From Minisyncoccota bacterium (GTDB lineage: Bacteria; Patescibacteriota; Minisyncoccia; UBA6257; JAGOQP01), in the NCBI GenBank assembly GCA_041661795.1, contig JBAZTS010000004.1:6136-70135 (forward strand): a DNA stretch of 64,000 nucleotides, written 5' to 3'. Below, piece by piece: positions 21,594 through 63,806 of this stretch. Both the position numbers and the translations under genes were made by a program. The number at the start of each line of letters is the position of its first letter. Within the stretch, counting starts at the first letter, position 1. The notes beneath the pieces are model-generated. The model was not told where the DNA came from and ran no database searches. It worked only from the letters and a program-made list of their open reading frames with translations.

Positions 21594-21667
21594 GGGGGTG
21601 TAGTTAAGTGGTATAACGGGTCATTCGCATTGACCAAGCCGGGGTTCGATTCCCCGCACCTCCACCA
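21594..21667 (+). tRNA. tRNA-Ala (anticodon CGC), CCA encoded
   Basis: GGGGGTG acceptor with G3:U70, anticodon loop TTCGCAT, T-loop TTCGATT, 3' ACCA. Confidence 0.75.
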
Positions 21668-22799: not shown

Positions 22800-23654
22800 A
22801 TGTCTAAAAATATTTTAATAATTATTCTGGCGGTTATTGTGGTGGGAGGAGGCGCCTATTTTATAATTAGTAATTTTTCCAATCCCTCAAACCAAGACCA
22901 AATCCAAAACCAAGCGGATGATTTTAACAAAATTGAAACTGCCGCTAAAAATTCGGCATATGTTATAGAAAGAGATTCTTTTGATTTACAGAACGGTTCT
23001 TCCAGTCAACCCTCGGGAACCGAGACAAAAGTTTTTAACGTGACATCTGGAGATATAAATCAGGACGGTAAAGCCGATGCTGTTGTTATTTTATTTCAAA
23101 ATTCTGGAGGAACCGGGACTTTCTTTTACGTTTCGGCTATAACAAATTCCAAAAATGCCTATCAACCGGCCGCTAATTCTGTATTTTTAGGTGACAGAAT
23201 TTCTCCTCAAACAGTTGAAATAAAGCAAGGACAAATAATCGTAAATTATGCCGATAGATATCCCTGGGAATCGTATGCGGCTACTCCAAGTGTCGGTAAA
23301 TCAAAATATCTCACATTTGAAAACGGACTTCTTAAAGAAAAAGAATTACCAAAACTTTCTTTAGATGAAGCCAGAAGATTGATTTTAGATAAATATTATA
23401 AGGATTGTTTACCTGTCGATTGTCCAACCAGTGTTAATGTTGATGTTTCGGATGGAGTTGATGGTGTTTGGTATGTTCAGGCGATTTTCAATGGTGTTAA
23501 AGATGATTCTGTTGATTCTCAAAAAAAGATTCATTCCGTTAATCTTGTTTCCGCTCCAAGTGAAACTTGGGCTTTGGGACAGGTATTAGTTAGTCAACAA
23601 AGATGTCAGCAAGGGAGAGGGCATCAGGAATTTTCAGAAGAACTGTGTTTATAG
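22800..23654 (+). CDS. Hypothetical membrane-anchored protein
   Basis: N-terminal TM anchor. The C-terminus extends into the GC-rich segment. Confidence 0.45.
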   Translation: MSKNILIIILAVIVVGGGAYFIISNFSNPSNQDQIQNQADDFNKIETAAKNSAYVIERDSFDLQNGSSSQPSGTETKVFNVTSGDINQDGKADAVVILFQNSGGTGTFFYVSAITNSKNAYQPAANSVFLGDRISPQTVEIKQGQIIVNYADRYPWESYAATPSVGKSKYLTFENGLLKEKELPKLSLDEARRLILDKYYKDCLPVDCPTSVNVDVSDGVDGVWYVQAIFNGVKDDSVDSQKKIHSVNLVSAPSETWALGQVLVSQQRCQQGRGHQEFSEELCL

Positions 23655-24576
23655 TGCTATCCCGGTTGACTTTTGTATGGTTCCGTAATAGTATAAAGAC
23701 AGCTCGTTTGAACTCAAAACGTGGAGTCCTGGGGGACACGCGACCGAAAACGGCTTGCGCTCCATCGGTGGCGCTATATAAAATAACCGATTCTGTGTCG
23801 TGTGGGCGAGGAAGTACACCTGCACACGACATGCCGCGGAGGTCGTAATCTCCGCTGGTCCGATTGACGGCACGTGTTGCCGTCGAAATAGTGGCTCTAT
23901 GCTACTGGAAGTTGTTACCACTCTTGTGGTAACGGAGGCGGTACCCACTCCGCTCTCCATTCCAAAAGGGGACGCCAAGCGCTCCCCGTAGGCATCGACG
24001 CCAGAAACAGATACATCGGATCGTGTAACACTTGATCAGTTCGCGTGCCCCCAGGCTCCCGTCAACACAGCACCACCCACCCCGCCCTCGAGGGTGGTTT
24101 CTTTTTATATAACTATATAACTTGACAAAATATTTAATGTATGATAACATGTGCACATGTGCAAACTGCAGATCCCGCACAACGACGGGATTGGTGCACG
24201 AGCACAGCATAGGGCGCAGGGATGAAGACCCTGTCTGCCTAAGCTAAGCTGTGCTCTTACCAAAGCAGGACCGCACGGGTCCAAAAAGAGCCCACCCAGA
24301 GTGGACTCAAGGGAACGAAGGCCTTGCCCGTTAGAGCCCAAATCAACTACAAGGGAACAACTCTGATTGACAATCGCTTTCCATCCCAAACCAAGAAGAG
24401 GATAGGCTTGAAGGTTTAATGTCATCTCAAACTCCTCACATTAGTGTTTACACTAATGTGACACAAAGTTTGACGAAGACAACCTCTCTCAAGCCACCTC
24501 AAAAATTTAAAGGTCGGCTACCTTTTCAAATAGCCACTGCACTCCTCGGTCTCTCTATGAGACCACTCGATCCTAA

Positions 24577-24606
24577 GGGACGCCCCGCGCGTCCCTTTCG
24601 CTTTTT
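24577..24606 (+). terminator. Rho-independent terminator (GGGACGC-CCCGC-GCGTCCC + TTTCGCTTTTT) closing the GC-rich non-coding island
   Basis: Perfect 7-bp GC stem followed by a U-run on the plus strand. Confidence 0.7.
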
Positions 24607-24651
24607 ATACAGTTTTGATTTTGTGGAGGCAAAGGAATAGAATTACAATAT

Positions 24652-25047
24652 ATGAACACATACAACTGGTATCAAACATTAATCAAACCCTCCTGGTCTC
24701 CGCCTTCATGGCTTTTCGGACCGGTTTGGACTTTTCTCTACGTTATTATCGCCGCTACCTTCGGCACGGTCTTCTACAAAGCTTTTACCGGAAAATTGCC
24801 CTGGCTTGTTGCCCTCCCCTTTATTCTCAATCTCATTTTTAATCTTGCTTTTACTCCTCTCCAGTTTGGACTTAAGAATAATTTTCTGGCGGCGGTTGAT
24901 ATTCTACTTGTTCTCGGGACTCTGGTTTGGGCATTAGTTGTTATTTATCCTTATGCCAAATGGATTACTTTTGCCAATCTTCCCTATCTTCTTTGGGTTT
25001 TATTTGCCACTGTTTTACAATTAACCATCACCTATCTAAACTGGTAG
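24652..25047 (+). CDS. tspO: TspO/MBR family tryptophan-rich sensory protein
   Basis: 'KPSWSPPSWLFGPVWTFLY' hallmark; five TM helices. Confidence 0.85.
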   Translation: MNTYNWYQTLIKPSWSPPSWLFGPVWTFLYVIIAATFGTVFYKAFTGKLPWLVALPFILNLIFNLAFTPLQFGLKNNFLAAVDILLVLGTLVWALVVIYPYAKWITFANLPYLLWVLFATVLQLTITYLNW

Positions 25048-27778: not shown

Positions 27779-30139
27779 ATGCCAGATTTTTCAAAAAAAG
27801 AACTTTCCGAACAAGATATTTGCTCAAAATATATCCTACCAGCTATTGTTAACGCCGGTTGGGATTTACAGAAGCAAATTCGCGAACAATACAGTTTTAC
27901 GGCTGGTCGCATTACTGTGCGCGGGAAGACTGTTTTTCGCGGAGAACAAAAACGTGTTGATTTTATTCTTTATCATCGGGGTCATCTCCCGCTCGCAATT
28001 ATTGAGGCAAAAGACAACGCTCATTCGGTTGGTGAAGGAATGCAACAGGCTTTGGGATATGCAGAAGCCCTTGATGTTCCATTTGTGTACAGCTCCAATG
28101 GAAACGCTTTTTTGGAGCATGACCGTATCACAAAAACAGACGCTGTTGAACGAGAACTTAAGCTAAGTGAATTTCCTTCGCCAGAGACGCTTTATAATCG
28201 TTATATAAAGGCCAAAAATATTATCCCCGCACAGGAGCAGATAATTATTCAAGATTATTACCATGAAATAGATGGAAAGTCACCACGCTATTTTCAGCAG
28301 GTGGCCATAAATCGCGCCACAGAAGAAATCGCCAAAGGTAAAAATCGTCTTCTGCTCGTAATGGCAACTGGTACCGGTAAAACTTACACCGCTTTCCAAA
28401 TTATCTGGCGTCTTTGGAAAGCCGGAGTAAAAAAACGCATTCTCTTTTTGGTTGATAGAAATATTTTGGCTGATCAGCCTATCATGAATGACTTTAGACA
28501 CTTTGGCGACAAGATGACGAAAATTCAACACCGTCAAGTTGATAAAGCTTACGAAGTTTATCTAGGACTTTATCAGGGTTTAACCGGTCTAGAAGAAGAA
28601 AAAAATATTTTTAAACAATTCTCTCCTGATTTTTTTGATTTGATAATCGTTGACGAATGTCACCGAGGGAGTGCTCGCGAAGATACTGCCTGGCGTGAGA
28701 TTCTGGAATATTATAAAAACGCCACTCAAATCGGTTTGACTGCCACTCCAAAAGAAACCGCCGACATTTCAACTCAAACTTATTTTGGCGAACCGGTATA
28801 CACTTACTCGCTCAGACAAGGCATTGAAGATGGTTTTCTGGCTCCTTATAAAGTCATTAGGGTTACGTTGGATAGAGATGCTGAAGGTTATCGTCCTACG
28901 GTTGGGGAGATTGATAAATATGATAATCCGATACCAGATAAAATTTTTAGTCAAAGTGATTTTGATCGCAAAATAGTACTGGAAGAACGTACCAAAGTCG
29001 TAGCCGAAAAAATCACTCAGTATCTCAAAGCTACTGATCGGATGCAAAAAGCGATTGTATTTTGTGTAGACACCGAACATGCCGATCGCATGCGTCAAGA
29101 ACTCGTAAACACAAACTCCGATCTTGTTAGTGATCATCCTAATTACATCGTTCGTATAACCGGTAACGATGAATATGGAGTAAAGGAACTTGATAGATTT
29201 ATCAATCCGGAAAGTCCTTATCCAGTCATTGCTACTACCTCAAAATTATTGACTACCGGAGTTGATACACAGACCGTTCGCCTTATTGTTATAGACCAAA
29301 ACATCAATTCAATGATTGAGTTTAAGCAAATCATTGGTCGCGGCACACGTGTGCGTGAAGATTATGGCAAGATGTTTTTTACCATTATGGATTTCCGGGG
29401 AGCTACGGAGTTATTTGCCGATCCTAAATTTGATGGTGACCCAGTTGTTATTTATCAAGCTAAAGAAAAAGGACCAATTATTGACCCCAACGAAGATGAA
29501 AAGGGAATTATTATAGAAGACAGACCAATTATTGATTATGATGTTTCAAGACCAAGAACTGGAATGGTTCATGACGAGCCTAAAAAATATTATCCCCAAG
29601 GCGTAGAAGTAAAAGTTATTAATGAGAGAGTCCAATATATGGATGAACATGGCAAACTTATCACTCAATCGCTTAAAGACTATACTAAACACAATATTTT
29701 AAAAGAATACGCTTCGCTGGATGATTTTTTAACCGCCTGGACGAAAGCCGAACAAAAAGATGCAATTTTAAACGAATTGGAGTCGCGTGGAGTATTTTTC
29801 CAAGAATTATCAGATGAAGTTGGTAAAGATTTAGATCCTTTTGATCTCGTTTGTCATGTCGCCTGGGGTAAAAAACCTCTTACGCGTCATCAGAGAGCAG
29901 AAAAAGCTCGTAAGGATGATTATTTTGCAAAATACAAAGGTAAGGCGCGTCAAGTTATAGATGCTCTTTTAATAAAATATGCCGACCAAGGCATTACTGC
30001 TATTGATGACATCGGCGATCTTCAAGTCCCGCCCCTTAACGAATTTGGAACTCCTGTCGAAATTGTAGATATTATCTTTGGTGGTCGGGAGAAATATTTA
30101 GAAGTTATTCAGGAAGTTCAGCAAGCTCTTTACTCTTAA
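27779..30139 (+). CDS. hsdR: Type I restriction enzyme R subunit
   Basis: N-terminal PD-(D/E)xK nuclease region, SF2 helicase motifs (MATGTGKT, DECHR, TATPKET), HsdR C-terminal domain. Confidence 0.9.
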   Translation: MPDFSKKELSEQDICSKYILPAIVNAGWDLQKQIREQYSFTAGRITVRGKTVFRGEQKRVDFILYHRGHLPLAIIEAKDNAHSVGEGMQQALGYAEALDVPFVYSSNGNAFLEHDRITKTDAVERELKLSEFPSPETLYNRYIKAKNIIPAQEQIIIQDYYHEIDGKSPRYFQQVAINRATEEIAKGKNRLLLVMATGTGKTYTAFQIIWRLWKAGVKKRILFLVDRNILADQPIMNDFRHFGDKMTKIQHRQVDKAYEVYLGLYQGLTGLEEEKNIFKQFSPDFFDLIIVDECHRGSAREDTAWREILEYYKNATQIGLTATPKETADISTQTYFGEPVYTYSLRQGIEDGFLAPYKVIRVTLDRDAEGYRPTVGEIDKYDNPIPDKIFSQSDFDRKIVLEERTKVVAEKITQYLKATDRMQKAIVFCVDTEHADRMRQELVNTNSDLVSDHPNYIVRITGNDEYGVKELDRFINPESPYPVIATTSKLLTTGVDTQTVRLIVIDQNINSMIEFKQIIGRGTRVREDYGKMFFTIMDFRGATELFADPKFDGDPVVIYQAKEKGPIIDPNEDEKGIIIEDRPIIDYDVSRPRTGMVHDEPKKYYPQGVEVKVINERVQYMDEHGKLITQSLKDYTKHNILKEYASLDDFLTAWTKAEQKDAILNELESRGVFFQELSDEVGKDLDPFDLVCHVAWGKKPLTRHQRAEKARKDDYFAKYKGKARQVIDALLIKYADQGITAIDDIGDLQVPPLNEFGTPVEIVDIIFGGREKYLEVIQEVQQALYS

Positions 30140-30149
30140 TTAAAATTGT

Positions 30150-31580
30150 ATGTCTGAAATCCAATCTATAATAAAAAACATCCAGAATATAATGCGCCAA
30201 GACGCAGGTGTTGATGGCGATGCCCAACGGCTCTCTCAGCTTGTTTGGATGTTGTTTTTGAAAATATTTGACGATCAGGAAAAAGAGAGGGAACTTATAA
30301 ATCCCAAGTATAAATCTCCGATTCCACAGGATCTTCGTTGGCGTAATTGGGCAAGCAATCCAGAAGGGACAACCGGCGATAAATTGCTTGATTTTGTAAA
30401 TAACACTCTTTTTAAACGTCTCAAAGATTTATCTTTTGACGAAAGCGAAGACCCGCGCGGTTTTATAGTCCGCGAAGTATTTGCCGATAGTTATAACTAT
30501 ATGAAGTCCGGAACGCTTATTCGTCAGGTTATCAATAAAATCAACGAAATTAATTTCAATAAAGCCGACGACCGCCACGCTTTTAACGATTTATACGAAC
30601 ATCTGCTAAAAGAGCTTCAGAGTGCCGGAAATGCGGGGGAATACTACACGCCTCGCCCTCTCACACGTTTCATCGTGGAAATGGTAAATCCTAAACTCGG
30701 CGAATCCGTGTTGGACCCAGCTTGTGGCACGGGGGGATTTTTAATTGATACTATTGAATATATAAGAAAAAATGAGATAAAAAATCAATCAGATGAAAGA
30801 AAATTACAAAACCAGATTCACGGAGTGGAACTTAAACCGTTACCACATTTGCTTGCTATAACCAATATGATTTTACACGGCGTGGATACTCCAAAACATC
30901 TTCGTTGTGGCGATATGCTCTCTCAACCTCTTCGTGAATACGGTCCCAAAGACAGAGTGGATGTAATCGTAGCCAATCCTCCATTTGGTGGAGCGGTAAA
31001 AGACGGAGTGGAAAAAAACTTTCCTGCCGAGTTTCGTACCAAAGAGACCGCTGATTTATTTTTAGTTTTATTTATACATCTCCTTAAACCTAACGGCCGA
31101 GCCGGAATTATTTTACCTGACGGGTCTCTTTTTGGAGAAGGCGTAAAGACTGCTATTAAGAAAAAACTACTTGAAGAATGTAATGTTCACACCATCATCC
31201 GCTTATCCCAAGGAGTTTTTAACCCATATGCCGGAGTAAATACCAATCTTATATTTTTCACCAAAGGCGAACCCACAAAAGAGATTTGGTATTATCAGCT
31301 TCCGCTTCCGGATGGAATGAAACAATACACAAAAAATCGTGGTATAACTCATGAAGAGTTTAATGTTGTCCGCAAATGGTGGGGAAGCCGTAAGTCAAAT
31401 GGAAATTCCTGGAAGGTCTCCATAAAAGAAATTCAGGAAAGAAATTATAATTTAGACTTTAAAAATCCAAACGGCAATGCAAAAACTAACCACAAGGATC
31501 CAAGGGAAGTTTTAGGGGAGATTAAGGAGAAAGAAAAAGAAATAACCAAAATACTGGGAGAAATTGATAGACAAATATAA
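30150..31580 (+). CDS. hsdM: Type I restriction-modification N6-adenine methyltransferase subunit
   Basis: HsdM N-domain; SAM motif 'DPACGTGGFL'; 'NPPFG' catalytic motif. Confidence 0.9.
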   Translation: MSEIQSIIKNIQNIMRQDAGVDGDAQRLSQLVWMLFLKIFDDQEKERELINPKYKSPIPQDLRWRNWASNPEGTTGDKLLDFVNNTLFKRLKDLSFDESEDPRGFIVREVFADSYNYMKSGTLIRQVINKINEINFNKADDRHAFNDLYEHLLKELQSAGNAGEYYTPRPLTRFIVEMVNPKLGESVLDPACGTGGFLIDTIEYIRKNEIKNQSDERKLQNQIHGVELKPLPHLLAITNMILHGVDTPKHLRCGDMLSQPLREYGPKDRVDVIVANPPFGGAVKDGVEKNFPAEFRTKETADLFLVLFIHLLKPNGRAGIILPDGSLFGEGVKTAIKKKLLEECNVHTIIRLSQGVFNPYAGVNTNLIFFTKGEPTKEIWYYQLPLPDGMKQYTKNRGITHEEFNVVRKWWGSRKSNGNSWKVSIKEIQERNYNLDFKNPNGNAKTNHKDPREVLGEIKEKEKEITKILGEIDRQI

Positions 31581-33941: not shown

Positions 33942-34415
33942 ATGCACAAAACAGAAAAACTAGGAAAAATCTCAAGTATTTCACCCAAACAGATGGTCAG
34001 CGTTTTTTTGAACAATTCTCCCGTACATGCAAAAACAATAATAGAAAAACACTATATCGGGTTATGGATAAAAGCTTCAGGAATTATAGAAAGCGTAGAT
34101 TTAATGTTGGACTATGTTACGTTCAATTTTCATAATAAGGATGGCACCTATTTGTCCACAAACTTTTTTAAACCTGTCGATAGCGAAACTTCCCAACTAA
34201 AAGTTAAAGATCAAATAAGTTTAATTGGAAAAGTATTTAATGTTGGAGATGGTATTGTGGTTTTAGACAATTGTGTGTTAACAACCAAAGACGAAATAAA
34301 CGATTCAATTAATAAAGAATCCAATTCAAACTGGTGGGAGAAAACTTGGGTGCAAATCATAATGCTTTTAGGTGCGATAGCGGGAATTATAGGACTTTAT
34401 TCTTTATTTAGATGA
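33942..34415 (+). CDS. Hypothetical protein with a C-terminal TM anchor, embedded in the hsd locus
   Basis: 157 aa with a C-terminal hydrophobic helix. The stop overlaps the hsdS start. Confidence 0.4.
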   Translation: MHKTEKLGKISSISPKQMVSVFLNNSPVHAKTIIEKHYIGLWIKASGIIESVDLMLDYVTFNFHNKDGTYLSTNFFKPVDSETSQLKVKDQISLIGKVFNVGDGIVVLDNCVLTTKDEINDSINKESNSNWWEKTWVQIIMLLGAIAGIIGLYSLFR

Positions 34416-35557
34416 AAACTTATCAAACAAAAAAACTCGGAGAGGCGTTGGATTACGAACAACCTGGAGAATATATTGTGAACTCTAAGGATTACAGCGA
34501 CAACTATAAAATTCCGGTTTTGACAGCCGGCAAAACTTTTATTTTGGGTAATACAAATGAGAAAGAAAATATTTTCCCGATTGATAAATTACCGGTGATC
34601 ATTTTTGATGATTTTACCACTGCTATAAAATTTGTTGATTTTCCCTTTAAGGTAAAATCTTCAGCAATGAAGATTTTACATGCTAAGAAAAATGTAGCAG
34701 ATATTAAATATTTGTTTTATTTGATGCAAACCATAGAAATCAATCACGCAACACATAAACGATATTGGATATCAGAATATTCTCAAATAAAAATCTCCCT
34801 TCCGCCTCTCGCTGAACAAAAAAAGATTGTTGCTAAGTTAGAAAAAGTATTGGGTAAAATTAAAGAAGCTAAAAAATTACGCTCCGAGGCAGAAGAGACC
34901 ACTAAAAACCTTATTCCCGCCGAACTACACAAAATTTTTGAAGAGGGCAAAAAGAAAGGTTGGGAAGAAAAAAAACTTGGAGATGAAACTATTTTAAAAA
35001 TGACGAGCGGAGGAACGCCAAGTCGATCAAATATAGATTTTTATAATGGTGGTATTCTTTGGCTAAAGTCGGGGGAACTTGAAAACAATGTGGATATTAT
35101 AGATTCAGAAGAAAAAATCTCTGAAGATGCGATAAAAAAAAGTAGTGCAAAAGTTTTTCCGAAAGGAACAGTTTTGTTTGCCATGTATGGCGCAACGGCT
35201 GGTAAATTAGGAATACTCGGTATTGATGCAAGTACTAACCAAGCAGTTGCCGGAATGATTCCTGTCGCAGAAAAGCTGAATAATAAATTTCTCTACTATT
35301 TTTTACTTAAGCAACGCGAGGAAATTATTTCTCAAGCATGGGGAGGGGCACAGCCAAATTTAAGCCAAGCAATTATAAAAGAATTTAAAATTTCACTCCC
35401 ATCTCTCCCCGAGCAAAAAAAGATTGTTGTGCGGTTGGATTTGCTATCTGAAAAAATCAAAAAACTACAAGATTACCAAAAATCCACTAAATCTGACATG
35501 GCATCGCTTGAACAATCAATTCTATCATCCGCCTTCTCCGGCAAATTAGATAAATAA
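34412..35557 (+). CDS. hsdS: Type I restriction-modification specificity subunit
   Basis: Two target-recognition domains, each followed by the conserved 'SLP(P/S)L.EQKKIV..L' coiled-coil repeat. Confidence 0.88.
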   Translation: MKTYQTKKLGEALDYEQPGEYIVNSKDYSDNYKIPVLTAGKTFILGNTNEKENIFPIDKLPVIIFDDFTTAIKFVDFPFKVKSSAMKILHAKKNVADIKYLFYLMQTIEINHATHKRYWISEYSQIKISLPPLAEQKKIVAKLEKVLGKIKEAKKLRSEAEETTKNLIPAELHKIFEEGKKKGWEEKKLGDETILKMTSGGTPSRSNIDFYNGGILWLKSGELENNVDIIDSEEKISEDAIKKSSAKVFPKGTVLFAMYGATAGKLGILGIDASTNQAVAGMIPVAEKLNNKFLYYFLLKQREEIISQAWGGAQPNLSQAIIKEFKISLPSLPEQKKIVVRLDLLSEKIKKLQDYQKSTKSDMASLEQSILSSAFSGKLDK

Positions 35558-36881: not shown

Positions 36882-36917
36882 GCACGGCTCGGATGTTTCC
36901 ATCCGAGCCGGTAGTGC
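36882..36917. terminator. Hairpin GCACGGCTCGGA-TGTTTCCA-TCCGAGCCGGT, left boundary of the GC-rich/cassette island (a related copy at 42498..42527)
   Basis: Read directly; it follows the minus-strand GC-rich ORF 36944..37372. Confidence 0.6.
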
Positions 36918-36943: not shown

Positions 36944-37372
36944 CTAGAGTTCGTGAGCCCAGGGGGCCCAGATGATCATGGTGGCGTCGTCGATCGTCGG
37001 TTGCTCGTCTGGCGGTCTGGGGGGGATCGCGACGACGACGTTGCCCTCCCTGATGCCCAGTTCGGTAGCGGTTGAATCGAGTTCGGTTCTCAACGACGTC
37101 CAGAAAAAGTCGTTGAGAGTCCGAAACTGACGCCGGTTCCGCTGGATTTTGATGTATGACCGCCTGAAGAAGGAGGCACCACCAAGCGATGCGGTTTCCG
37201 CCGTCAAGCTTTCGATTTCGGCGACGATGAAGCTCATGACCCTCAGGATGGTGGCGAGGTAATCGGGGATTTTACCGATCACCTTCTCACCCTCCTTGAC
37301 GGGGGGAAGCCCGTCGCTCGCCGGGGTTTGTCCGGCCTTTTCCACTAACTCGTCTAACCATGGAATCTGCAT
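36944..37372 (-). CDS. Hypothetical GC-rich protein (142 aa)
   Basis: AAGGAG ribosome-binding site upstream of the ATG. Composition unlike the host backbone. Terminator hairpin downstream. Confidence 0.5.
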   Translation of the reverse strand: MQIPWLDELVEKAGQTPASDGLPPVKEGEKVIGKIPDYLATILRVMSFIVAEIESLTAETASLGGASFFRRSYIKIQRNRRQFRTLNDFFWTSLRTELDSTATELGIREGNVVVAIPPRPPDEQPTIDDATMIIWAPWAHEL

Positions 37373-37441: not shown

Positions 37442-37472
37442 GTGTTTTTTGTTTTGGTGTAGGTGATATAAT
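37442..37472 (+). promoter_or_regulatory. Conserved promoter GTGTTTTTTGTTTTGGTGTAGGTGATATAAT (copy 1 of 3), extended -10 TGnTATAAT, ending 6 nt before the ATG
   Basis: Identical or near-identical copies at 39371..39401 and 40558..40588, each 6-8 nt upstream of a start codon (leaderless-type). Confidence 0.65.
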
Positions 37473-37913: not shown

Positions 37914-37947
37914 AACATCCTTACAAACTCCAGTTTGTAAGGATGTT
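37914..37947. repeat. Perfect palindrome AACATCCTTACAAACTCCAGTTTGTAAGGATGTT (cassette-boundary hairpin)
   Basis: Read directly. It shares the CAAACTCCAGTTTG core with hairpins at 38961 and 39328. Confidence 0.75.
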
Positions 37948-38090: not shown

Positions 38091-38303
38091 ATGAAGATGG
38101 AGAAGATGACCGATCGGAAACTGGGGCGGAAGGCGATGAAAATTCGCCTGATCGCCGAGACCGAGGAGGAGATGTCACTCCTCACCGAGATCACCTCTCA
38201 GTTGTTAGGAAGGTGGCCGGTTCTAGGAGACAAACTGAAGGATGAGAAGGTTTTCCAGCTTGACGTCACTCTCCGCAAGATGTGGTCAGCTGTTCTCGGC
38301 TGA
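38091..38303 (+). CDS. Hypothetical small GC-rich protein (70 aa), first gene of a three-gene GC-rich module
   Basis: AGGAGGA ribosome-binding site. A TTGACTTCT -35-like element upstream, similar to the other GC-rich modules. Confidence 0.45.
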   Translation: MKMEKMTDRKLGRKAMKIRLIAETEEEMSLLTEITSQLLGRWPVLGDKLKDEKVFQLDVTLRKMWSAVLG

Positions 38304-38350
38304 CGCGAAGCGCTTGCTTAACTTGCTGTATGAACTGAAAGGAGACAGAG

Positions 38351-38617
38351 ATGTGCGGACCACAGTTGGGAATCCCGCTCAACGACCAGACCCTCGCTGA
38401 GATGTCCCAGGAGGAGAGGAACTTCTGGCTGGACTTCCTGGAAGAGGCCTCTGATGTCATCGAGAAAATGGCGGATGAAGAGGCCACTCAGCCATTCACT
38501 CCGCCGGCCTCGCTTCTGTCCAAGTACAACATGGCGGTGGCACGCTATGATGGGCGTGCTTACTGCCAGATCCTCCAACTGGAGGAGATCTTCAACTTCC
38601 ACCAGACCCAGACCTAA
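38351..38617 (+). CDS. Hypothetical small acidic GC-rich protein (88 aa)
   Basis: AAGGAG ribosome-binding site 7 nt upstream. Confidence 0.45.
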   Translation: MCGPQLGIPLNDQTLAEMSQEERNFWLDFLEEASDVIEKMADEEATQPFTPPASLLSKYNMAVARYDGRAYCQILQLEEIFNFHQTQT

Positions 38618-38628
38618 CAAGGAAGGAG

Positions 38629-38826
38629 ATGCCGATGTTTTCAAACAAGAAGTGTCCGAAGTGCGAGAAGTCGTACACGATCCTAGCGACCACGATCTAC
38701 AACGTCCAGTGGTGCTTCTCCCACGGAGAAGCACCCGTCTTCCTGGACAGGACGCTCTGTTGTGGAGCACCTGTCGGGAACTTTCGGGGAGGAGACCCCT
38801 CTTCGACGCTGGTGACCAGCACCTGA
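38629..38826 (+). CDS. Small Cys-rich protein (CPKC...YNVQW...RTLCCGAP), paralog of 42236..42424
   Basis: Clear amino-acid similarity to ORF 42236 (KKCPKCEKSYTILATTIYNVQWCFSHGEAPVFLDRTLCCGAPV vs KEKCPKCGQTCGMAITVYNIQWVRENGERPVYLSRTLCCGSPM). Ribosome-binding site present. Confidence 0.6.
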   Translation: MPMFSNKKCPKCEKSYTILATTIYNVQWCFSHGEAPVFLDRTLCCGAPVGNFRGGDPSSTLVTST

Positions 38827-38960
38827 TCAACTCTCCAACTACTTAAGTACAACCAGGGCAGTTTCACTGCCTCGACCGCCGCGGCCAACCCCCGCGGCGG
38901 ATCTTTTTTATAAAGAAATATAATTTTGATTTTCATCGCTAATCTTGGCCTATCTTTTCC

Positions 38961-39000
38961 ACATAACATATCAACAAACTGGAGTTTGTTGATATGTTAT
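38961..39000. repeat. Perfect palindrome CATAACATATCAACAAACTGGAGTTTGTTGATATGTTATG (cassette-boundary hairpin)
   Basis: Read directly. Same stem as 39328..39365, with the loop inverted. Confidence 0.75.
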
Positions 39001-39327: not shown

Positions 39328-39365
39328 ACAACATATCAACAAACTCCAGTTTGTTGATATGTTGT
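39328..39365. repeat. Perfect palindrome ACAACATATCAACAAACTCCAGTTTGTTGATATGTTGT
   Basis: Read directly. Confidence 0.75.
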
Positions 39366-39370
39366 TTTGG

Positions 39371-39401
39371 GTGTTTTTTGTTTTGGTGTAAGTGATATAA
39401 T
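39371..39401 (+). promoter_or_regulatory. Conserved promoter GTGTTTTTTGTTTTGGTGTAAGTGATATAAT (copy 2)
   Basis: One-nt variant of the 37442 and 40558 copies; it ends 8 nt before the GNAT ATG. Confidence 0.65.
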
Positions 39402-39895: not shown

Positions 39896-40038
39896 GAGTG
39901 TTTTTTGGTTTAAGTTGACTTCTGTGATTTATGTGATATAACTATGGCAGAATTGTAGTCAATCGAAGTTTTGCACCAAACTGTCTGTGAACAGAAGGGG
40001 CGGTGTAAAACACTGCTCTTTCACAAGAAAAGGAGAAA
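39896..40038 (+). promoter_or_regulatory. Promoter (TTGACT ... TGTGATATAAC) plus conserved roughly 100-nt 5' leader of GC-rich module 1; homologous to 41903..42033
   Basis: About 75-80% identity to the leader at 41903-42033, including 'AATCGAAGTT(T/C)TGCAC' and 'CTGCTCTTTCACAAGAAAAGG(A/G)GA'. Alternative pairings GTGAACAG/CTGCTCTTTCAC and GAAAGAGC/GCTCTTTC preserve a hairpin. Confidence 0.55.
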
Positions 40039-40411
40039 TATGTCTCAGGCAAAGTGTAGTTCTTGCCAACGCGTTTTCGAACCGTCTGTCTCGTTCGACT
40101 TCTACCCGAAGCCGACTCCGAAGGATCCAGACGCCGGTTTGTGCGAGAGCTGTCTCATGAGAGGGATCTTCCAGGAGACGGCGCGCGACCCGGTCCCGGT
40201 TCCCAACGGACACGAGACGAGCGTCTGCAAGAAGGGACAGGGAGAACTGACCTGTAGCTTTTTGGGTCTCTCTTCCAGGGACGGGCACCTCGTCTACGAG
40301 TGCCTGAAGGGAAGCTCCTTGGAATCGGCCATCAGAGGGCGGCTTCGGGAGGGCTCCATGAAGTCCAAGGGGGACAACTGCTCCGGACCCCCCGACTTCC
40401 GGGCCAACTGA
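40039..40411 (+). CDS. Cys-rich protein (124 aa), apparently a fusion of domains homologous to ORFs 42034 and 42236
   Basis: The N-terminus 'CSSCQRV..YP..P.DPDAGLCESC' resembles 42034 'CDVCCYRR..YPVDP...C'. The C-terminus 'CKKGQGELTCSF..' resembles 42236 'CPKCGQTCGM'. Ribosome-binding site AAGGAG. Confidence 0.5.
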
Positions 40412-40557: not shown

Positions 40558-40588
40558 GTGTTTTTTGTTTTGGTGTAGGTGATATAAT
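40558..40588 (+). promoter_or_regulatory. Conserved promoter GTGTTTTTTGTTTTGGTGTAGGTGATATAAT (copy 3)
   Basis: Identical to 37442..37472; it ends 6 nt before the NYN-gene ATG. Confidence 0.65.
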
Positions 40589-41902: not shown

Positions 41903-42033
41903 TATTTTGACATCTGTGACTTATGTGGTACAACTTGAGCAAGATTGTAATCAATCGAAGTTCTGCACTAAACGCTGTTTATCGAAAGAGCGGTGCGGGA
42001 CTTGCTCTTTCACAAGAAAAGGGAGGAAAGAAA
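41903..42033 (+). promoter_or_regulatory. Promoter (TTGACA ... TGGTACAAC) plus conserved 5' leader of GC-rich module 2
   Basis: Homologous to 39896..40038. Confidence 0.55.
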
Positions 42034-42219
42034 ATGCTTCCAGCATGTGACGTGTGTTGTTACCGAAGAGATATCTGGCGTATTTACCCCGTTGATCCTC
42101 GGAAACAAAAGTTGTCTCACAATCGCTATGCCTGCGATCTTCACAAGAGCGAAGTGATCTCGCGGGTGAAGTCCAGTACTGCGTGGCCCAACTTCGAGGT
42201 GATCGTCGAGAAGATCTGA
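42034..42219 (+). CDS. Small Cys-rich zinc-ribbon-like protein (61 aa)
   Basis: GGGAGG ribosome-binding site; 'CDVCC...C..H' pattern. Homologous to the N-terminal half of 40039..40411. Confidence 0.5.
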   Translation: MLPACDVCCYRRDIWRIYPVDPRKQKLSHNRYACDLHKSEVISRVKSSTAWPNFEVIVEKI

Positions 42220-42235
42220 AGGAAAGGAGAAACAA

Positions 42236-42424
42236 ATGCCGAAGAAGGAGAAGTGTCCCAAGTGCGGGCAAACGTGTGGGATGGCCATCACGGTCTATAA
42301 CATCCAATGGGTGCGTGAGAACGGGGAGCGTCCGGTGTATCTTTCCCGGACGCTCTGCTGCGGCTCACCGATGAGGGGATTCTGGGGAGAGAATTTCCCC
42401 CTGGTGCCGGGATCCAGCCCCTAG
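42236..42424 (+). CDS. Small Cys-rich protein (CPKC...YNIQW...RTLCCGSP), paralog of 38629..38826
   Basis: AAGGAG ribosome-binding site; paralogy as above. Confidence 0.6.
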   Translation: MPKKEKCPKCGQTCGMAITVYNIQWVRENGERPVYLSRTLCCGSPMRGFWGENFPLVPGSSP

Positions 42425-42497: not shown

Positions 42498-42527
42498 AAG
42501 CACGGCTCGGAAAATCCGAGCCGGTGA
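42498..42527. terminator. Hairpin GCACGGCTCGGA-AAA-TCCGAGCCGGTG, right boundary of the GC-rich modules (a related copy at 36882..36917)
   Basis: Read directly. Confidence 0.6.
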
Positions 42528-43282: not shown

Positions 43283-43426
43283 ATGCCAGTTTGGTGTAAT
43301 AAGCACAACAAGGAGGTGAAGAAGAAGGACAGGGCGCGATGCTACAGGTTGGGGTGCTCGTGGCTGTCGTTCATCTTGCGACGAAAGAGCAGGAGAATCA
43401 GTCGGAGTAGCAGAAGGTAAGCACAT
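43283..43426 (+). CDS. Small Arg/Lys-rich GC-rich ORF (47 aa), tentative
   Basis: AAGGAGG ribosome-binding site 6 nt upstream; GC-rich. A hairpin terminator (AGGCCTGCGT-TTGGGG-ACGCAGGCCT) follows at about 43460-43490. Confidence 0.3.
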
Positions 43427-43549: not shown

Positions 43550-43756
43550 ATGGATCAGGTGCTGGTTTCTTTATTGGCCGTAACGGTCATCGGTCTTCTT
43601 GCGGCTATCTGTTACGTCGTCTCTCTATTTATTAAGGGGAGATCAGACAAGAACAAAAAAATCAACAAAGAAATTACTGACTCCCTCTGCAAGTGGTCCC
43701 ACCAGGATATCGGAAAGCCGCCCGATGATCTCTGGAGTAAGCCGCCGGGAAAATGA
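43550..43756 (+). CDS. Small membrane protein (68 aa)
   Basis: GGAGG ribosome-binding site; one TM helix. A terminator follows at 43790-43832 (CGTCCGCGGGA...TCCCGCGGACG TTTTCGTTT). Confidence 0.45.
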   Translation: MDQVLVSLLAVTVIGLLAAICYVVSLFIKGRSDKNKKINKEITDSLCKWSHQDIGKPPDDLWSKPPGK

Positions 43757-54730: not shown

Positions 54731-54838
54731 TTTACCTCTATTCTTGGGGGCTATCCGCAAAATAGGTCCTGACTTTTTCAAGTAAGCATCACAGTTTTAC
54801 AAAAATAAAAACACCCTATATGGGTGCTTTTATTTTCG

Positions 54839-55155
54839 TGGAGATGGCGAGAGTTGAACTCGCGTCTAAGATAGTCGTTTTAAAATTACTACATGCTTAG
54901 TTCTTGAGACAAGCTCAAAAGCGGTTTTGCTTTCTATTTTTTCCCCATATCCTACAGAAAGCTACTTGGATATGAGTACTCCTCATATATAACACCGGAT
55001 AATCTCCTATGAGGTGTCAGAGTCCGATGCCTACCTTACGCGAAAGCGAAGGCGGGAGCCAAGTTTTTGTTGGCGTTTATGTTGTTGCCAGTTAGCGGCA
55101 TGGCAGCCGGCATGCAATTTTAAAAGTGCGTATCTTATCGAAGCCCAGCATCCCC
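54839..55155 (-). ncRNA. ssrA: tmRNA (SsrA)
   Basis: Minus-strand 5' GGGGATGCTGGGCTTCGAT... and 3' ...GACGCGAGTTCAACTCTCGCCATCTCCA, giving a tRNA-Ala-like acceptor with G3:U70. Candidate tag reading frame GCC AAC AAA AAC TTG GCT CCC GCC TTC GCT TTC GCG TAA (ANKNLAPAFAFA). Located 5 nt downstream of smpB. Confidence 0.8.
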
Positions 55156-63574: not shown

Positions 63575-63650
63575 GGGCACGGGTATTTTTCTGCTGAAAA
63601 ATCCCTCAAGCTCAGCCCGCCGGCTTCCGCACGGCCCAAAAACCTTCCTT
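63575..63650 (-). repeat. Inverted copy of the roughly 75-nt repeat found at 3855..3930
   Basis: The reverse complement aligns at about 85% identity: CCG..CGGAAGCCGGC.GGCTGAG.T.GAGGGATTTTTCAGCAGAAAAATACCCG. Confidence 0.7.
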
Positions 63651-63806
63651 AAAACCCATACTTGACTTTTGTCTTAATATTTGCTATAATCCAAGGACAA
63701 ACTGGAATAAGGTGACATTGGGTCATCTTGTCCAGACGCACATTAACAAGAAGTGAACATGTTGTGGAAGGTTTAGGAACCTTACCGCAACAGAAAGGGA
63801 AAGCTC

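Follow-up and report, generated by a model that had tools for sequence, protein, structure and literature searches.

In the 64,000-nt stretch of the Minisyncoccota contig JBAZTS010000004.1 analysed here (the window), a GC-rich gap between a gene for a 284-aa protein and tspO may harbour two tandem, independently transcribed and highly structured orphan non-coding RNA (ncRNA) genes, named units A and B, in a defence or accessory island. In our judgement, the chances of this reading are about even. The gap (23655-24651 in window coordinates, which are used throughout, both strands being considered) spans 997 nt from the stop of the upstream gene (23654) to the start of tspO (24652). At 0.498, its GC content exceeds the 0.376 (37.6%) of the whole window and is the highest among the stretches of the window that lack an open reading frame (ORF) of 110 aa or more. 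In length, the gap falls 4 nt short of the longest of these stretches. In 300-nt windows, the GC content amounts to 0.51-0.56 across 23600-24350. A preliminary description of this DNA had proposed a single ~1-kb GC-rich, non-coding and structured island. Its composition, its non-coding and structured character and the transcription signals at its bounds are all borne out here, whereas the single RNA of ~1 kb gives way to two units.

The division into two units comes from the transcription signals (Table 1). A consensus scan of the plus strand returned, in this order, a promoter, a GC-rich body and a terminator, followed by the same succession a second time, and the presence of a promoter-terminator pair around each GC-rich block argues for two plus-strand units instead of one. 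The TTGACA promoter at 24122 that had been recognized earlier was recovered with its 17-nt spacer and a TAACAT element preceded by TG. The same holds for the plus-strand terminator, whose stem at 24575-24597 is followed by TCGCTTTTTA. A second promoter (23666-23694) and an internal terminator (24082-24097 plus TTTCTTTTT) had been overlooked, the latter lying 15 nt ahead of the TTGACA promoter. Sites of the form TTGAC[AT]-N16-18-TANNNT are rare, being found 14 times in the 64 kb when both strands are counted, and two of these 14 sit exactly at the starts of the units. Each unit is equipped with a sigma-70-type promoter, of a form that recurs in the window, and with a canonical intrinsic terminator on the same strand, a combination that is a generic mark of ncRNA genes. 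The transcript ends given for units A and B are those predicted from the positions of these signals.

Another mark of ncRNA genes, a stability beyond that of composition-matched shuffles, was also found for the two units. On the plus strand, the minimum free energy reaches -176.5 kcal/mol for unit A and -173.0 kcal/mol for unit B, with z-scores against dinucleotide shuffles of -7.5 and -10.4, respectively. The plus strand surpasses the minus strand in both cases (z of -6.2 for A and -6.3 for B on the latter). An independent shuffle yielded z-scores of -7.1 for unit A and -8.7 for unit B, and of -2.7 for the transfer-messenger RNA (tmRNA) of the same genome, used as a control. As further controls, five of six segments from the GC-rich protein-coding cassettes of the window (described below) gave z-scores between -0.3 and -2.2, and native coding DNA between -0.2 and -0.6. 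In sliding windows of 120 nt, the structure signal begins and stops where the units do, and the flanking coding DNA remains at z ~0.

Unit A is predicted to fold into about ten hairpins with stems of 6-9 bp inside a long closing helix, and unit B into a chain of local hairpins that includes a 103-nt imperfect palindrome. The apex of this palindrome is itself a perfect 12-bp palindrome (24436-24461) with arms TCACATTAGTGT/ACACTAATGTGA. It corresponds to the internal palindrome previously noticed at 24436, and its arms (24436-24447 and 24450-24461) are indeed 100% complementary. The whole 103-nt element has a local z-score of -6.0 on the plus strand and -7.7 on the minus strand and matches its own reverse in nhmmer. 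The two units are mutually dissimilar, and nothing else in the 64-kb window resembles either of them in nhmmer. The only motif common to both is a UCUAU pentaloop, located at 23896-23900 in unit A (AGUGGC-UCUAU-GCUACU) and at 24554-24558 in unit B (GGUCUC-UCUAU-GAGACC), which could be a chance match.

On these grounds, we propose that unit A (~409 nt) would form a multi-hairpin domain held together by its 19-bp long-range helix, and that unit B (~453 nt) would form a series of stable hairpins around the imperfect palindrome, both folds being predicted from a single sequence. The two units would accumulate as stable, terminator-capped RNAs acting in trans, and the most plausible role of both would be that of protein-binding scaffolds or decoys. 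Their setting near Fic, PhD/ParE and type I restriction-modification genes would be compatible with a function related to defence or to mobile elements, and points to no particular partner.

The search for relatives returned identical copies only, in one ENA and two Logan assemblies. As the same sequence is present in three independent assemblies, an assembly artefact can be set aside. Exact look-ups of the 284-aa protein and of TspO led to the identical contigs only. The comparison with orthologous intergenic regions that had been suggested was performed on 80 tspO loci from GTDB species of other Patescibacteria, whose protein is 67-81% identical. No counterpart of unit A or B was detected there by nhmmer, and these loci have no neighbour gene in common with the window. 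In 16 of them, Rfam models identified tRNA and 16S rRNA only. A blastn search against phages and plasmids gave nothing useful, and an 18-mer scan of IMG/VR gave two chance matches in GC-rich coding DNA. The palindrome apex had no match in IMG/VR, nor in the JGI metagenomes, a collection that does not hold the present contig itself. An 18-mer from a loop of unit A had 43 metagenome matches, nearly all in GC-rich contigs, and none of them was related by nhmmer.

Several observations weigh against the existence of two ncRNA genes. The putative ends and strand of both units derive solely from consensus scans, and the same kind of scan places promoter-like and terminator-like sites on the minus strand as well. 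The minus strand also folds well (z ~-6), and the sixth GC-rich coding segment used as a control reaches a z-score of -5.3. In the same vein, the predicted stems are nearly all Watson-Crick, with ~4.5% of G-U pairs (6/133 in unit A and 6/136 in unit B) versus 12/99 pairs in the tmRNA, and this scarcity makes the complementarity nearly symmetrical at the DNA level, which would suit young or DNA-level palindromes as well as an RNA. The loops are mostly odd pentaloops and not of the GNRA or UNCG type. Such a pairing pattern looks more like that of DNA palindromes or young hairpins than that of a long-evolved RNA with tertiary structure. Finally, no homologue was found in the collections searched, which leaves no covariation and no sign of selection.

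These observations bear directly on the alternative that survives best, namely that the region is non-functional or selfish GC-rich DNA, either a recently acquired foreign fragment or a cluster of palindromic elements. The hairpins would then be DNA-level inverted repeats of mutational or mobile origin and not the product of selection on RNA, and the resemblance to promoters and terminators would be fortuitous or a relic of the donor cassette. Besides the Watson-Crick stems, which allow both strands to fold, and the absence of relatives, this explanation can draw on the 103-nt palindrome, which recalls MITE-like or ERIC-like elements, on the other GC-rich insertions of atypical composition that the genome clearly bears, and on the contig breaks that other assemblies show at the edges of GC-rich modules. 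However, no hairpin of the region recurs in the 64-kb window, unlike those of MITE or REP families, and two strong promoters and two canonical terminators lie exactly at the block borders on one strand, which is also the strand favoured by the z-score. Moreover, 950 unconstrained bp in a genome of 37.6% GC should drift towards AT, unless their arrival was very recent. We regard selfish DNA as a serious but rather unlikely origin of the region.

It is improbable that unit B is a long cis-acting leader of tspO, i.e. an attenuator or riboswitch in which read-through of the terminator at 24575-24607 would control this gene. Nothing similar lies upstream of tspO in the 80 loci described above, and in the three of them that were inspected for it (L052, L055 and L063), the GC-rich stretches directly upstream of tspO are protein-coding. 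No riboswitch family matched within 23400-24800 (Rfam, E<=10), and no alternative partner for the 5' arm of the terminator was seen when the sequence was read by eye. A leader would fit with the terminator ending 45 nt before tspO on the same strand and with the lack of a well-placed Shine-Dalgarno sequence. Yet tspO has a promoter-like site of its own (24615-24643) that is compatible with a leaderless mRNA, and the combination of this site with the missing Shine-Dalgarno sequence suggests that tspO may be leaderless and independent of unit B.

Even less probable is a decayed and possibly frameshifted protein gene on the minus strand, which would be represented by the successive ORFs 24425-24105, 24210-23902 and 23978-23649. 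These three ORFs of 102-109 aa do tile the region in different frames, and the first one has a GAGGA motif 7 nt ahead of its ATG. In this respect, the earlier statement that only overlapping ORFs without ribosome-binding sites are present needs to be amended. The ORFs do overlap and are at most 109 aa long, and none of the eight ORFs of the region that were examined has a Pfam match at E<=10. On the plus strand, no ORF of at least 12 codons comes with a Shine-Dalgarno sequence. Codon periodicity is absent, the period-3 Fourier signal being 2.0 in unit A and 0.6 in unit B versus 2.4-7.5 in the GC-rich cassettes and 12 in the upstream native gene. The ORF with the GAGGA motif is likewise aperiodic, is interrupted by a minus-strand terminator-like site and has no entry in a predicted-protein collection of 15 billion sequences, from which the other two of the three minus-strand ORFs are missing as well. 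Two ORFs of the region, P0059 and P0060, stand in this collection as singleton clusters. Two six-frame composite protein searches were empty and are uninformative, as they missed even P0059 and P0060, which served as positive controls. A 128-aa frame segment had no match among 1.84 billion representative proteins. Recoding of one stop codon (TAG or TAA) extends the longest frame to 234-244 codons, which is not credible given the lack of codon periodicity. In GC-rich DNA, long ORFs that encode nothing are to be expected. The preliminary description had also considered that the island could be a pseudogenised module sharing the foreign origin of the other GC-rich modules. Those modules are intact small protein genes with a strong GC periodicity at third codon positions, and when their products were compared with the region by tblastn, no match had an E-value below 1.5. 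In view of this missing protein-level similarity and of the missing coding signal, a pseudogenised module is unsupported.

Neither unit appears to fall into an RNA family described so far. When Rfam 15 was run at gathering thresholds, it recognized only the tmRNA and seven tRNAs in the whole window, the tmRNA being found at 54836-55155 on the minus strand, i.e. outside of the gap as already stated in the preliminary description. With permissive filters and E<=10, the 1.4 kb from 23400 to 24800 yielded two chance-level matches to C/D snoRNAs (17.1 and 13.6 bits; E of 2 and 6.6). RNase P, 6S, SRP, GOLLD, ROOL, HEARO and OLE were all absent at E<=10, in line with the previous failure to discern RNase P blocks by eye, and ARAGORN found nothing in the region. 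In RNase P RNA, a long-range P4 pairing joins CR-I (GAGGAAAGUCC) to CR-V (ACAGAAxxCGGCUUA). A highly divergent housekeeping RNA beyond the reach of the Rfam models in this lineage is scarcely credible: for RNase P, one may invoke the ~400-nt size of unit A, its long closing helix, a GAGGAAGU stretch that by eye loosely recalls CR-I and the absence of any other candidate in the 64-kb window, but this stretch, the sole one of its kind, sits in the loop of a hairpin (23797-23830) and not in a long-range P4-type pairing, no model matched, and the window is a fraction of the genome, so that the RNase P RNA may lie elsewhere.

Should units A and B exist as stable RNAs, they would join the few large bacterial ncRNAs whose function has yet to be found, and would do so from a lineage (Patescibacteria or candidate phyla radiation, CPR) whose RNA repertoire has barely been explored. 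In these AT-rich genomes, the heuristic based on GC-rich intergenic regions singles out such candidates. The wider significance is limited, as the sequence is an orphan from one strain. In practical terms, the annotation of the locus would be corrected to two genes instead of one, and these differ from the neighbouring GC-rich modules by the lack of a protein-coding signal. A bolder and rather doubtful extension would be that the units are the first members of one or two new classes of structured ncRNAs of 400-450 nt in Paceibacteria. They would then be RNA payloads of the same type of autonomous module, made up of a native promoter, a GC-rich payload and a hairpin terminator, as the orphan-protein cassettes, and CPR genomes would exchange self-contained RNA cassettes too, within accessory or defence islands.

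The genes around the units are in keeping with an accessory location. The region from 21.7 to 36 kb, downstream of a tRNA-Ala gene (21594-21667), looks like an accessory or defence island, with HTH_17 and Fic genes upstream of the units and RadC, PhD/ParE and type I restriction-modification genes downstream. Several genes separate hsdM from hsdS, one of them with a weak sub-threshold HEPN match. The adjacent genes include no reverse transcriptase, nuclease or RNA-binding signature gene. The best non-self homologue of the 284-aa protein is 48% identical, and its homologues are found in unrelated contexts. The identification of the downstream gene as tspO is backed by its Pfam match (Table 1).

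Table 1. Coordinates of units A and B, their signals and structural elements, and other features of the window
Feature	Position	Strand	Description
Upstream 284-aa gene	22800-23654	+	No Pfam domain in the present copy
Unit A promoter	23666-23694	+	TTGACT, 17-nt spacer, TAGTAT; begins 12 nt past the stop of the 284-aa gene
Unit A, predicted ncRNA	~23700-24108	+	~409 nt, 56% GC; predicted ends
Unit A closing helix	23723-23743 with 24041-24059	+	19 Watson-Crick pairs in blocks of 4+8+7, pairing probability >=0.97 (inverted repeat I5)
Unit A terminator	24077-24107	+	CCGCCCTCGAGGGTGG then TTTCTTTTT; stem 24082-24097 by consensus scan, 24077-24097 in the fold
Unit B promoter	24122-24150	+	TTGACA, 17-nt spacer ending TG, TAACAT; 10/12 matches, extended -10
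Unit B, predicted ncRNA	~24156-24608	+	~453 nt, 50% GC, A- and C-rich; predicted ends
Unit B 5' hairpin	24200-24256	+	Perfect 9-bp stem GAGCACAGC/GCUGUGCUC around a nested hairpin (I3); local z -4.5 to -4.8
Unit B imperfect palindrome	24398-24500	+	103 nt, ~37 pairs, zero G-U (I4)
Unit B terminator	24575-24607	+	AAGGGACGC-CCCGC-GCGUCCCUU then UCGCUUUUU; 45 nt between its end and the tspO ATG
tspO promoter-like site	24615-24643	+	TTGATT-17-TAGAAT, ends 8 nt before the ATG
tspO	24652-25047	+	131 aa, PF03073
hsdR (type I restriction-modification)	27779-30139
hsdM (type I restriction-modification)	30150-31580
hsdS (type I restriction-modification)	34412-35557
Cassette genes	1810-2091, ~2140-2330, 36944-37372	-
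Cassette genes	38091-38826, 40040-40411, 42034-42424, 43283-43420, 43550-43756, 63808-end	+

The other GC-rich modules of the window (~1.7-2.5, 36.9-37.4, 38.0-38.9, 40.0-40.5, 42.0-42.5 and 43.2-43.8 kb, and 63.7 kb to the window end) have a GC content of 48-60% and consist of small orphan protein genes with a ribosome-binding site, a high GC content at third codon positions, their own promoter, of a kind that recurs in the window, and a GC-rich hairpin terminator. Their products have no significant Pfam match, apart from two weak sub-threshold ones, and the two that were tried (142 and 123 aa) have no relatives in IMG/VR. The layout of promoter, GC-rich payload and terminator is common to units A and B and to these protein cassettes, which may also share a mode of acquisition. 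An ENA contig ends within 2 nt of a repeated leader at 39960 (window ~39958), and position 63604, shortly before a promoter at 63662, is the end point of two Logan contigs. Such breaks of independent assemblies at cassette borders hint at GC-rich modules that are repeated or that vary between populations.

The cassettes also display a number of shared elements. Two of them have a common promoter (TTGACWTCTGTGAYTTATGTGRTAYAAC) and a common ~90-nt 5' leader (CAATCGAAGTTYTGCAC...TGCTCTTTCACAAGAAAAGG) at 39917-40040 and 41907-42033, and this leader is possibly a conserved regulatory leader RNA. Two cassettes are each closed by a gene for a Cys-rich protein (38629-38826 and 42236-42424). These paralogues of 65 and 62 aa (CPKC...CCG) are 50% identical. 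A near-identical 28-nt AT-rich promoter motif, TTTTTTGTTTTGGTGTAGGTGATATAAT, is located at 37445-37472, 39374-39401 and 40561-40588 before three AT-rich genes that alternate with GC-rich cassettes. Between modules, a palindromic hairpin with the core ACAAACTGGAGTTTGT is repeated in either orientation (~37915-37945, ~38960-39000 and ~39330-39365), and another repeated hairpin, GCACGGCTCGG...CCGAGCCGGT, lies at the end of each of two GC-rich cassettes (36882-36912 and 42500-42525). On the minus strand, two small membrane-protein ORFs are directly preceded by an identical 17-mer, TCTCCCGCGATGAGCTC (2107-2123 and 2350-2366), which is a shared leader. Finally, the cassette coding segment 38420-38830, which is the control with a z-score of -5.3, is far beyond the other cassette segments and may hold an embedded RNA structure.

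Among known systems, three kinds deserve to be compared with units A and B. ERIC/IRU elements, MITE-like repeats and the GC clusters of AT-rich organelle genomes are multi-copy elements built as imperfect palindromes. The 103-nt palindrome of unit B and the presence of Watson-Crick-only hairpins in AT-rich DNA are reminiscent of them, whereas the region, in contrast to these elements, is not repeated in the 64-kb window or in the collections searched. A multi-copy palindromic element of the MITE, REP or ERIC type was rejected on this basis, no second copy being found within 64 kb.

The stem-loop TIGR arrays of TIGR-Tas systems are reported from CPR bacteria (PMC12045711), and the region is similar to them in its CPR host, its run of palindromic hairpins that differ in sequence and its predicted terminal terminator. 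This candidate was also discarded. Neither strand contains a box C (RTGATGA) or TGATG, and CTGA occurs once per strand in 958 nt. Moreover, the region has no repeat units, its loop sizes do not fit two spacers of 8-12 nt, and no Nop-domain Tas gene was present among the called neighbours (~16.8-29.7 kb, precomputed Pfam).

The third comparison is with the large ncRNAs OLE, GOLLD, ROOL, HEARO and raiA, which the Breaker/Weinberg approach brought to light by way of long intergenic regions that are GC-rich in an otherwise AT-rich genome (e.g. PMC5737381, PMC6429828, PMC11109978). Units A and B differ from them in that they match none of these families and come without a multi-genome alignment, hence without covariation support. 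Their stems are also unusually perfect and poor in G-U pairs, and they lack a signature gene such as oapA, HNH/IscB or tRNA clusters. As for these RNAs, however, the two units occupy a long intergenic stretch of several hundred nt with a GC content far above that of an AT-rich genome, and they combine many predicted helices, their own promoter and terminator, and surroundings of the accessory or mobile type.

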